A DNA stretch of 63,886 nt, counting the filler, from Aduncisulcus paluster (Eukaryota), in NCBI GenBank assembly GCA_024181965.1. It is 10 parts of 10 records of this genome, joined end to end, with 100 filler letters (N's around TTAATTAATTAA, not from the genome) between each part and the next. Parts side by side here need not be neighbours in the genome. Positions count along the whole stretch, not along the records: positions 21,643 to 32,940 come from BQXS01000173.1; 9 more parts are not named here. One strand, given 5' to 3'. The notes below the pieces were generated by a model that saw only the letters and a list, made by a program, of their open reading frames with translations, did not search any database and had not been told where the DNA came from. Each line of letters opens with the position of its first letter. Positions within the stretch are counted from its first letter, which is position 1. Shown here in pieces: positions 214-27,300 of this stretch. Both the position numbers and the translations under genes were made by a program.

Positions 214-1010
214 AAAGAAGGTCGATAAGAAGGTCGTTGGTGTAACTTATTGATTGTCATTGATAACTGTTCTAGACCCACGTCCTCTTAGCTGTTTGTT
301 TTTGTTTCTTGACTACCTATCTGTTATCTTCTTTAACTAATTGATGATGTTGTTTTTCTCTACTATTTCTGACTATTTTGATGGCCATGTTTCTTATTGG
401 TCATTCTCTCTTCGATCTCTACTTTCTATATTCACCCCTTGATAAATCTTTTTATTTTGTATTAGCACTCTTGCTGATGATCTTCTTACCGTGTGATCCT
501 GGATCTGTCTCCCTTTGTCCCTTTTCTCCCTTCTCTAAGGTGTGTTTGACATGACAGCTCTTTGCGATTCCTCTTTTCTATCTTTCTATCGTCTTTTTAT
601 TGATTTCTTGATACAAGTAAAAAACTGCTTGAAAATGTGAGATAATTTTGACTCAAAATTTTTGAGACAGAATTTACGGTCTCAGAATCACAGATTAAGT
701 TTGAAGAATTTGAATAGTGTGGATTGAATCCCAGAAAACTCTCCCTTTTCTCCTGAAATATCCCATAAACAATAACTTTTCACCGATATGGAACACAATC
801 GAAAATATTTCCAAAAATAAGGTCAGAGCTCTCAATATTTGAAGAAAAGGGATATAAATTGCATGAATCATGACAATACGACAGAATAACAACTATTAAC
901 TTCTTCAAAGCCAGGGGTATATTGTTGAAAAGGTCAAAAGATGATATGGTGAGTTGAAAAAACGATTCAAACAAGAAAGAACATTTGATGATGAATTACG
1001 CGGAAATAAT

Positions 1011-22271: not shown

Positions 22272-22559
22272 ATATAATTTTTGATACCAAGAAATAGCGA
22301 TTTGAGTCAAATCCGGATCATTTTTGGGGGGGACTCCCCCCGCATCGGATGCGTTAGGTTTCTTCACCTAAAACCTTAATATTTTTTTCTTGTTAATTCC
22401 GCTCAAAAAGGATCTCTAATTATTTTATTTTCATTCTTTCTGTGGTATTACAACATTTATGCCATAAACTCAGTGAGTTTTGTTCGGGCGGAACTACTAC
22501 TAGTACAGTATAGTTCGATATAGTAGGATGAAACTTAGTCCCCGCCTGCGGTATCGTAT

Positions 22560-23938
22560 TGATTGCAGACCTTATCTCTAGCTGGTAGATCACTTTCATT
22601 GATCAGTCTGACCGTTTCATTTGAAGCCACTCATGTTGTAACTCCCTCAGTTTACCAATTGTTGATTCAAATCTCTGACCCCCATCCTCCATAAAGGAGA
22701 AGTCAGGCTCAAAAATATTATCAGGGATATCGCCTTGAGCAGTAAACCAAGCAGGCAAGAACCCACTCGGTTTCAGCACCACTCCAGGGATCTCCATATC
22801 AATCGGATCACCAGAGACAGTTTCAGGTTGAGAGTCACTCACGATAGTGGATGTTCCATCACCCGGAGGATCAGGAAGCGGTGAGTGATGCGAGTCCTGG
22901 CCGCTACTACTCACATCATTCTCCACATCAAGTCCCGGAGGACCTGTCAGTATTTCAGATTGTTCGCCAGAGATGGCTAGGCTCTGTACCTCATTCTCAT
23001 TCTCGTCTCTTGTCTCATCATGCTCCATTTCTTGAGAAGTATCTCCGAACCCCGGGTCGGACAAATGGAACTCCACCCATGCAGCTGTATGTAATAAATC
23101 CATGAAATGCTTACTCGCATTGCTTGCTTGCAGGTTTTTCAAGAATGCTCCTATTCCTGATGGAAAGACCCCTCTAACATCTCTTGCAAGATGTTTCAAG
23201 GACCTCAGTTTGAGAGTATCCCTGTGATACAATGGCATATGACAACGAAGCCCTCCTTTCTCAAGAGGCAAGGCAAGACGGGTGGAAGGGATCTCAATCT
23301 TAAGCTTGTTAGACCAAAGATTGGAAAGTGCAGTGTTCATCGTTATCAGTTCATCATCGGGGATTGATGAATATTGGATAAGATAAGAGAATTGTTTGAG
23401 AATCACAGTCTCGAATACATAGTGAAATGATTGCAAGTCCAGGAACTCAGATGTCGTAACTGCCACTTCCAAGGTCTTCTTCAAGGAATCAACAGCTGCT
23501 TGAGATGCAATCTCTTCATCAGATGAGAGTGGCACCCCCATGACATCATGGCACCGTTCCACGACAAAGTCATCCTCCTCTGTTGTAACCGGAAGAGATC
23601 CCGGGGCCAGGGGAACATAGATAGTCTTGTCGCGGTTCAGCTCAAGACCGAACTCAGGCAAAATACCTTTGATAGCACTAAGAATGCTTCTGAGTTCATC
23701 AGTGGATCTTACAATCAGGGTAATAGCCTATCATCAAGATAGGCTATTACACGCGAGATTACTGCAACAACTGAGCCATTAGCATCTTTCATTTCAATAG
23801 GAGGCATCAATTCCTCTAAAAGAGCTAGGATGGGAATAATGGCAAGAGAGAACAGGAGGGATGAGAGCTTATCCCCTTGAACCAGACCTGTCTCTCGGTC
23901 GAGAACATCGTCATGAAAGATTCCTTTGAGTAAAACTT
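22560..23938 (-). mobile_element. Decayed non-LTR retrotransposon RT fragment, CRE-like (RLE-type), 5'- and 3'-truncated and frameshifted
   Basis: The minus strand upstream of the listed ORF reads GLVQGDKLSSLLFSLAI and IAYLDD. After a 5-nt frameshift it continues ITLIVRS...FGLELNRDKT, DVMGVPL, LPLEKGGL. These are RT motifs 4-7 plus thumb. YLDD and G.P motifs favour the CRE clade (inference). Confidence 0.85.
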
Positions 23939-24315
23939 CTCATAACTCCGTTTTAATAATTATAATAAAGTAATAAAAGTGATATTAAAAAGTCCTTGTA
24001 AAATTGAGGACGGCAGCTCGCTGTCTGCTTCGATTTCCCCTATCCACGTCATCGACGATTTACGTTCGGCGAAAAATACCTCTTTTCTCTACTTGAACTT
24101 AAAATATCGTGTAGTCCCTTTTTGCACTTTGCAAGGTGCCACAAACAACTTTTCACACCGGGTGAAAACTGAAACCTAGAAACAAATAAATTTATTATAT
24201 GTAATTAGGTAACTAGAGCAAAAAAGCAATACAAAATCAGTATCAAAAAGAAAACTAAAATTAGTATGGTGAGTTGGTGTATTTGATAACAACCTGTTTT
24301 TGTTCCAGCTATCTC

Positions 24316-27300
24316 ATGAAATATGTTTTGACTAGTTTTATTTTTATATTCTTTTTTTTATTAGTGGATGCGACAACCACTCGCAAATCCATAGATGTTT
24401 CTACTTCTTCAAAAGATGATATCGAATCTGTTTTTTCCGATCTTTGTCAACAAATAACCGATAATTCCCAAGATATTGGAATATTAGAGATAAATGCCAC
24501 CAATACATCTTCAAATATTTTTTCTATTCAAGATTCGTTGACTTTAAAATGCCCTCATGTAAAAATTGGATCTTCTGGCGATAAGAGGATATCCCTTCAA
24601 ATTGGAGGAATTGTATTGTATGATTCTTTAGATATAGAGGACATTACAATTTGTTCTATCATCGAGGACGACAATTCCATTTCTATTTCTGGATCTCTTC
24701 GAGGTGGAACTGCTAATCTGAAAAGTACTGATTTGATTAATATAGAATTGGCTTCTTCTGCTTCTAGTATTATTGAAGGCGATGGAACAGTGGTTGTTTC
24801 CTCATCTACTGTGTCCTTCTTGTCTCTGATTGTCGGGGCTGGAGGTAGCCTAAATTTGCAGCAGTATGCGCATGTAACAATCCTAGGAAGTTTGTACCTG
24901 AGTGGATTAGTGAATATAAGTGATTACAATACATCCAGCAACAGTTATAATGATGTTGTTGGATCTTTTCTTAAAGTAGGCGGAGATATCATCAGTGAAA
25001 CCGATGATGGACAGATATACATTAACAAGGCAACCCAAAGTATCAATGGAAATCAATCGAGCGGCCTCACAGGGAACAGTACATCCGATTCCAATTCTGA
25101 GGAAGTTATGGCTCTCGTCAACGTTGGGGGATCATTCTGTTACAATTCAAGCATCACCACGCATTCATTGGTTATGGCCAATGTCACAAATGAGTCCTCT
25201 TTTGCTCCTATTCGGATTAATCTAGGACCTTCCTTCTGCAATCCAGATACCTATACCCTTGGGTTGTATCGACCTCAAGTGAGCAGTATTTCGAGTGTTC
25301 AGGCCATTGGAGGTGTGTTCGAACTTGGAAAGAGTGACCTTGGAAGCTCCGTTATGTTTGAGGTTACTGCTGGTGAGTTCGAAGATGTCCAGGCCCTTGC
25401 TGGTTCTGTTTTCTATACATCAAGTCCGTTTAGGTGTTCTGCGAGTACAACTTTCAGCGATGACCTCAAAGGCCTCGGAATTATCTATATCAACGCAGAT
25501 GTTGCCTTTGATACTGTCACTATGACCTCAGCTGGTTCTGAACCTGTCTCTACCCTCACGACAAGTGCTCAAGCAATGAGGAAGTTCTTGGTTGCTGATG
25601 AGACCTCGCCCTTAGATAATATCCAACATTTGCTTACTCTTTGTGCCAGTATCACTTCCTTCGGGAATCCAGTCGTAACCTCACCTGTCCACATTTGCAG
25701 GAGAGAAGATGTGGTNNNNNNNNNNNNNNNNNNNNTACTGTCACTATGACCTCAGCTGGTTCTGAACCTGTCTCTACCCTCACGACAAGTGCTCAAGCAA
25801 TGAGGAAGTTCTTGGTTGCTGATGAGACCTCGCCCTTAGATAATATCCAACATTTGCTTACTCTTTGTGCCAGTATCACTTCCTTCGGGAATCCAGTCGT
25901 AACCTCACCTGTCCACATTTGCATGAGAGAAGATGTGGTCGATGAGAATGGGAACACTTCAACGATAGAGCATTGTCCATCAATGCACAAGGAATACCAG
26001 CCTCCCCATGCTTCTCTCTTTTATCCCTTGTTCATGTCAGTGCCTTGCCCAGACTGTAGTTCTCCACCAAGCCCATATAACTGGTATTCTGCATCTGCTA
26101 CACAGTTTCTTGAAGAATTCTATGATGCTCTTGACGATGATCTTGATGTGGCTCCATACATACGCTCTCTCAATAATGGTTCCAACTATGATCGTATTGG
26201 TCTCTCACCTCTGGCGAGTCATCGTGTTAAAGTATCTTCTGATCCTATTCCCATTACAAATGTGACTTCCACTTCAGATTACACCCCCTTGTGGGTGGAA
26301 CAGGCCATGGAAGATGCAAACTATAGTCATAATCCTTTCGAAATTGACGTGACCTCTTATTCAAGCTGTTTGAGTGATCCATATTCGAACCCTGATCTCT
26401 GCACTTGTATTGTTGACCCCTACAGCAATGAGGCCTTGTGCAATGTCGAAGTCGATGATATTATCAATGATTCTGATACCTACCCTGATCTCGACTCTGA
26501 TGTGTCAAGTGTGCTCTTTTCTTCATCTTGGGTGAGTGAGACACTGTCAAAGTTTGTATCCTTCGAAAATCCATCATTCTTGGATAATTCTGACGAGGAT
26601 TCCATCATATCTTCTTCTGTGATTGGATATTCCACTTTAGATGTAACCATGTTCACTCTCGACTCTGGTGCTCCCAGTTCCTATCCTTTCCTTGATTCTA
26701 CAAGTTCTCTGGCGTCTTCCTCGAGTTCTTCGTCTTCAACGACCTCTTCCGCTGTTATTCACACCCTACGTGTTGTTTTCAGGGATTATTTCGGTCAGCT
26801 CAGCGCCCCCGTTCAGAAGATGGACATTGGGGTTGGTGTCAGTTTTGAGGATATTGCTTTCTATCGGCCAGGTGTTGAGCCTTCATATGTGACTGTTAAT
26901 GCCTCATATGTGATGCAACACACAAATATTCCCGATTCGCTGGCTGAAGATAGTTCTACGAAGGATAACAGCGATGAGCTCATATATGAACGTGTGAGAG
27001 ACGATGATGTTGAAGTTTACATACCCATCACGCTCACAACTCCCATTGAAGATATTTATGGCTTTGGGTTCATTTTTGTGAAGCAGGCAAGCACTCTTCT
27101 TCCTTATAAATTCCCTATTCACGTTAATGTGTGTCAACTCGGTGCCACCCTCGTGTATCCAAGCAACAATAAGTTCCGAGGGGTCTGCTCATTTTGTGAT
27201 AGTGGGTACTATAAAATTGAGACAAAAAGAGGATCCGAGTGCATTGCTTGCCCCGATCATGTACAGTGTTTTGGTGGTAATATTGTTGGTGTTGATGAAG

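Follow-up and report, generated by a model that had tools for sequence, protein, structure and literature searches.

A perfect inverted repeat in a dead R2-like retrotransposon fragment of Aduncisulcus paluster reconstructed as a templated fold-back mutation

Aduncisulcus paluster is described as a free-living fornicate flagellate, and its genome assembly comprises 29.6 Mb in 23,235 contigs. The window analyzed here (the whole stretch of DNA under study, 63,886 nucleotides including filler) is a set of scaffolds from this assembly and contains long open frames, EF-hand proteins, a CCT chaperonin and LRR proteins. Around most of its 20-nt N gaps (e.g., 25512–25715 and 25736–25939) between 186 and 313 nt are repeated at 99.5–100% on both sides; these are unmerged scaffolding overlaps rather than true tandem duplications.

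On the minus strand, at positions 22524–23914, comparison with sister copies delimits a fragment of about 1.39 kb, cut at both ends, from the interior of an R2-like non-LTR retrotransposon. The frames on both sides of the hairpin described below are reverse transcriptase (RT) sequence: one minus-strand frame ends VIAYLDDRLLP-stop and a second one resumes ITLIVRS...PEFGLELN. A domain of the non-LTR RT type was found on the sister copy L003, where RVT_1 scores over the Pfam cut-off (E 2.8e-14). The best solved-structure matches of L003 are R2 proteins (E 2.8e-7), and its four best solved relatives are all R2 or R2-like RT entries. The copy L002 represents the downstream part of the element, and its open reading frame has Cys/His (CCHC knuckle) and PD..D motifs visible by eye, for which no such Pfam family was found. 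With R2-like non-LTR elements that carry a C-terminal restriction-like endonuclease the element shares RVT_1, R2 proteins as best relatives, the YLDD motif and perhaps these L002 motifs. Its placement as R2-like is by best matches, with CRE, R2, NeSL or another as candidate clade; the 3 matches obtained from 7,699 candidates in a homologue search for longer proteins gave no clade name; no full-length copy was seen among the matches. The public gene model P0001 on L003 (C12409) fuses a host kinase-family gene to the RT fragment in 1,061 residues and is probably a gene-prediction artefact. A second non-LTR family (L068, C12565, 2827–5859) has an RT about 31–40% identical and an open frame of 1,010 residues.

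The window copy is without the first half of the RT and the whole C-terminal part (CCHC and PD-(D/E)xK region), and abuts other repeats at both ends. According to repeat comparison it is joined at its 5' cut end, via 2 shared bases, to an unrelated repeat (23913–24147). Between the fragment and the next repeat on the opposite side lie about 25 nt of filler (22499–22523) which are, by eye, partly the reverse complement of adjacent sequence; this suggests that the fragment was inserted through templated end joining. Two further frameshifts (region 22569–22619, minus strand) are private to the window copy when it is compared with its sisters, with a loss of 2 nt near 22569 and of 1 nt near 22619; in addition, an early stop lies at 22603–22605. 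This copy is dead, and an active RT would be impossible whether or not the hairpin mutation were present.

Within the fragment, at positions 23720–23750, repeat search and folding identified a perfect inverted repeat with 13-bp arms (23720–23732 and 23738–23750) and a 5-nt loop (23733–23737). Its extent and the placement of AGCCT at 23725–23729 agree with what had been read in the initial annotation. It is the only perfect repeat in the window with arms of at least 13 and a loop of up to 10, and the chance expectation from 60 locally shuffled windows is 0.05 per window. Folded as DNA the hairpin reaches −12.7 kcal/mol (z −6.2), a stability attained by none of 200 shuffles. The RT catalytic site had been regarded as broken at this place, but translation reveals that the YLDD codons (23741–23730, minus strand) are intact and that the frame shifts downstream of them, directly after the second Asp, with the shifted frame terminating at 23715–23717. 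As the YLDD motif is intact, the fragment is cut at both ends and two more frameshifts are present, function was not lost through the hairpin mutation.

DNA search and pattern search found three copies in the assembly that cover the site, namely the window copy, L003 and L004. The closest copy, L003 (25 substitutions in 935 columns compared with the window), reads GATGATATAACC at the site and L004 reads GATGATTTAACC. Both sisters are 5 nt shorter and keep the reading frame, and both carry A where the window carries T. From these two paralogues, and not from an allele, the parent was reconstructed. The initial annotation had proposed that removal of AGCCT restores a single frame, which is borne out by both sisters; the parent it predicted, GATGATATTACC, is one base off and occurs in neither of them. 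Compared with L003, TA has become GGCTATT in the window (net +5 nt), and the insertion and the adjacent substitution each perfect the hairpin, whose loop is ancestral. Since both sisters are in frame and lack the repeat, the perfect repeat is the derived state. The parent, as represented by the sister copies, is nearly unfolded (−0.5 kcal/mol, z +0.8), with an inner stem of 4 bp plus an outer stem that is out of register and carries one mismatch (5/6 pairs by eye). C10871, the one inspected among six mismatched pattern matches, matches over 20 nt in unrelated DNA and is uninformative on the parent base. Judged from the aligned copies, the states before and after the change, as well as the exact copying in reverse complement, are very probably read correctly.

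The window branch has only 6 private substitutions in 483 three-way columns, which makes a separate A-to-T change at just that base unlikely (well under 1% by estimate from these columns). For a random 7-mer the rough probability of matching a nearby reverse complement is 0.005, which likewise speaks against independent ordinary changes, i.e., a chance 5-nt insertion combined with a point change. Programmed recoding is rejected because both sisters lack the 5 nt and are in frame, as the comparison proposed in the initial annotation now reveals, and the related second RT family has YLDDIT in frame as well. Taken as one alternative, ordinary changes or recoding have no observation in their favor and are highly improbable. 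The template-switch pattern suggested at the outset holds and is stronger than first thought because the substitution beside the insertion is also templated.

An artefact of assembly or library preparation would be suggested by the sampled words, of which fractions of only 0.74 and 0.68 were found in two runs, and by the private base 23542 of the window copy, which has zero depth in both. However, the served contigs drop variants, hence missing words are uninformative, and position 23756, which differs from both sisters and lies 6 nt off the hairpin, keeps residual depth (337/33,292 and 415/1,215). Furthermore, an exact templated change of 7–9 nt seldom prevails in a consensus. The contig overlay, built on contigs from two runs of the one sample, has no row at 23722–23729 among the 12 indel rows listed of 20. 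We consider such an artefact quite unlikely.

Four-point analysis from the L003 parent yielded 15 exact solutions, all of the order 3-2-1-4, that vary only by the count of shared bases assigned as copied. In all of them the window sequence follows the parent as far as point 1, continues as the exact reverse complement of a fragment lying close by in the parent and resumes the parent at point 4. On the minus strand, and in comparison with L003, the minimal newly copied stretch (GGCTATT replacing TA) covers 23722–23728. It is preceded by the 4-nt primer GATA (23729–23732), which is ancestral in L003 and can pair with TATC at 23741–23738. Both the copied stretch and the return microhomology have their template at 23742–23750, and the 2-nt return microhomology AC lies at 23720–23721. 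One fold-back with a 4-nt primer, a 5-nt loop and a 2-nt return accounts for both the insertion and the substitution.

According to the proposed mechanism a free 3' end on the element sense strand (...TATC-TTGAT-GATA) would have folded on itself with 4 bp and a 5-nt loop and would have been extended by 7 to 9 nt with its own upstream sequence as template. After unfolding, the strand would have been rejoined at AC to the DNA downstream, with loss of TA. As setting we infer snap-back synthesis while a double-strand break in a neutral DNA copy underwent end joining of the polymerase-theta type. That the whole mechanism, including the break-repair setting, was a single templated snap-back event is a reading on which the arguments for and against are evenly poised.

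In target-primed reverse transcription the sense strand is synthesized second. A fold-back by the element's own RT during second-strand synthesis, while the copy was made, would presumably have acted on exactly this strand. The first-strand route appears impossible as the RNA would not offer the needed template polarity, and the copy, an interior piece truncated on both sides, is unlike a normal 3'-anchored insertion. Such a contribution of the RT is unlikely.

The same geometry could also be produced by a template switch at a replication fork, either as an intra-strand switch on one strand or as an inter-strand switch on the other, and this corresponds to the classic quasi-palindrome correction (Ripley, cited in PMC5453318). 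In the human–chimp comparison described in PMC5453318, the order 3-2-1-4 together with its mirror case makes up 31% of those events that were rated high-confidence. Yeast has such mutations too, ascribed in PMC3820800 to Okazaki-fragment or transcription–replication problems, and the weak outer stem of the parent would fit a fork switch as well. On the other hand, the parent folds no better than shuffles, and the classic replication model is said in PMC5453318 to require a near-perfect repeat beforehand; in addition, the remaining templated insertions of this genome resemble break-repair products. A fork switch is therefore a possible but rather doubtful source. Break repair, for which we see about even prospects, is favored over it because the parent is a poor quasi-palindrome, because the genome has a Pol-theta-like gene and no match to Ku, and because metamonads are reported to be without Ku-dependent joining. 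Both the enzyme and the break are deduced, the two processes yield an identical product that sequence alone does not separate, and at the site neither a break nor a target-site duplication has left a trace.

The Pol-theta-like open frame (L134, C9755, 1008–7262, minus strand) comprises 2,084 residues with DNA_pol_A and POLQ_helical; its 5' end is open and long insertions are found within the polymerase domain. Ku had no match in the genome in a loose first-look search of this fragmented assembly, whose control gave a match in 1 genome out of 14. Metamonads reportedly have neither Ku nor NHEJ, and in some of them alternative end joining is complete (PMC8516963). Artemis/SNM1 (PF07522) had no match in the genome either, but the profile matched no control genome and this result is uninformative. 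L130 (C1433) and L131 (C5899), two short contigs that match DNA polymerase I strongly, probably come from bacteria in the culture. The 8 matches to the hAT dimerisation domain found in the genome offer hAT transposases as a possible source of breaks. Two copies of a MITE (L139:1988–3299 and L142:4558–5081), with terminal inverted repeats of at least 20 bp that start with CAAGG, are flanked by perfect 8-bp target duplications, and their host contigs also carry hAT transposase matches.

As in the 3-2-1-4 cases described by Loytynoja and Goldman (2017, PMC5453318), a reverse-complement copy from just upstream explains an indel and a substitution together and a perfect repeat results, but the new stretch of 7–9 nt (13 with primer and return) is below the 14-bp high-confidence filter given there. 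The event differs from quasi-palindrome correction in having a parent that is only a weak quasi-palindrome. With snap-back SD-MMEJ, i.e., Pol-theta end joining as described in PMC5728401, it shares the 4-nt inverted primer repeat 5 nt apart, the short templated insert, the 2-nt microhomology and the small deletion, all within 30 bp. Its motif of 13 bp (at least 4 bp needed) has its far end about 22 nt from the junction (within 30 bp), while the primer repeat has 4 nt and the return microhomology 2 nt (each at least 1 bp needed). In the same source the preferred and commonest snap-back primers are 3–4 nt long and under 10 bp apart, and the focal event falls in this class. In contrast with that system, which was established via induced breaks and genetics, the part played by Pol theta in this case is deduced from gene content.

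To what extent the event is representative of this genome can be judged from a palindrome survey of 40 contigs picked by number (238,974 bases, 10 shuffles), whose non-ORF part amounts to 82,546 bases. Outside long ORFs, perfect repeats with a one-base centre are overrepresented, both with arms of at least 6 (93 versus 26.9 expected) and of at least 8 (19 versus 2.6 expected). Inside ORFs there is no such excess (27 versus 40 expected). Zero-base centres show a lesser excess (42 versus 26.8 expected), and loops of 2–15 occur about as expected in the same survey. Looped repeats in 340,155 bases amount to 3 versus 0.2 for arms of at least 12 and 52 versus 58.8 for arms of at least 8; two long-arm ones from the 40 contigs are a repeated element and a low-complexity run. 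The long-armed looped class is at most slightly enriched and rare in the genome.

A corresponding picture emerged from 54 distinct length differences of at least 4 nt between paralogues of at least 82% identity (70 clusters before merging), for which the longer allele was taken as derived. New inverted repeats with arms of at least 6 are created by 14 of them (6 in the mirror-repeat control). The centre is 1 nt in 12 of these 14, including all 7 differences of 14 nt, and by eye in a 13th that had been dropped by the complexity filter; the focal event is the sole primed fold-back. This means that it cannot serve, as had initially been proposed, as a model of palindrome-making in this genome and is an exception to the main process, which is 1-nt-centred and mostly hAT-footprint-like.

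The footprints themselves were scanned for in 633,456 bases (the window plus 80 stretches, some of them selected for repeats; 5 shuffles). The pattern consisting of a 6-nt word X, one base, the reverse complement of X, one base and X again occurs 22 times versus 0.0 in shuffles. Both central bases complement the bases flanking X in 18 of the 22 and the first one does so in 21; for X of 5 nt there are 8 cases versus 0.4, and for X of 7 nt a single one. Such a triple pattern would be expected if both flanks of an 8-bp target duplication were hairpin-sealed and, once opened, were joined over 6 bases. PMC5499845 describes hAT, Transib and MULE elements with hairpins on flanking DNA, and Ac/Ds footprints with P-nucleotides, described in PMC5873905 as having the complement of the neighboring base at their centre, match the main class of this genome in their complement-centred palindromes and microhomology joins. 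The 8-bp duplications that flank the two hAT-like MITE copies add to this likeness. A hAT origin of the footprints is what we infer; no element was caught at a footprint site.

With such scars being common, and with a 13-nt two-tip insertion present in the sister copy L004, a hAT-type excision footprint, in which a hairpin-sealed end is opened and rejoined, had to be considered for the focal event as well. Nevertheless, whichever tip position is taken, on either strand, the sequence is not reproduced even to the first new base, and with this failure a direct hairpin-tip origin is rejected. Unlike Ac/Ds footprints, the focal event has a 5-nt ancestral loop and a primed stem, the 4 inner bases being ancestral too, and its centre base does not complement the one that follows. 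Moreover, 2 nt were lost and nothing was duplicated, and the remnant of an 8-bp target site is absent. A footprint in this strict form is very unlikely, while a hAT-excision break that was trimmed beyond the tips and then repaired by snap-back is subsumed under the explanation preferred here, i.e., snap-back synthesis during break repair.

The fold-back is a real and well-reconstructed example of a well-known type of copying or repair error, a tidy case in dead, neutral DNA that changed no function, and not the process behind most short palindromes of this genome. Its use is that of a control, as it demonstrates that two kinds of templated palindromes exist in the genome and that the common kind should not be modelled on the focal one; of more interest is the wider class of hAT-like footprints. 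Speculatively, and with considerable reserve, this Ku-less protist might keep a dense fossil record of transposon breaks healed by polymerase theta, mostly as 14-nt double-hairpin footprints of an 8-bp target, with a smaller share cut back beyond the hairpin tips before repair by primed snap-back. If this were true, both palindrome classes would share a single pathway, and the one-base-centred palindromes, whose excess is about 0.8 per kb of non-coding DNA, would render the whole outcome spectrum and hAT turnover measurable in one genome. A title search (titles only, with subscription journals sparsely covered) returned none on a genome-wide footprint signature or on palindromes in Aduncisulcus paluster.

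Some individual sites may be mentioned in addition. A complete double-hairpin footprint with a 6-nt word lies at window positions 645–666, and both of its central bases fit an 8-bp target duplication. At 22328–22353 the window differs in length by 17 nt from L008/L070 (C11289), paralogues that are 97% identical, and holds two small adjacent inverted repeats. The 13-nt insertion in L004 (C27, about 1886–1900) consists of a pair of 1-nt-centred palindromes; their tips share 4 overlapping bases instead of 8, so that it departs from the 8-bp rule. The second non-LTR family (L068), with 45 DNA matches in the genome, carries a 1-nt-centred footprint at the start of its frame.
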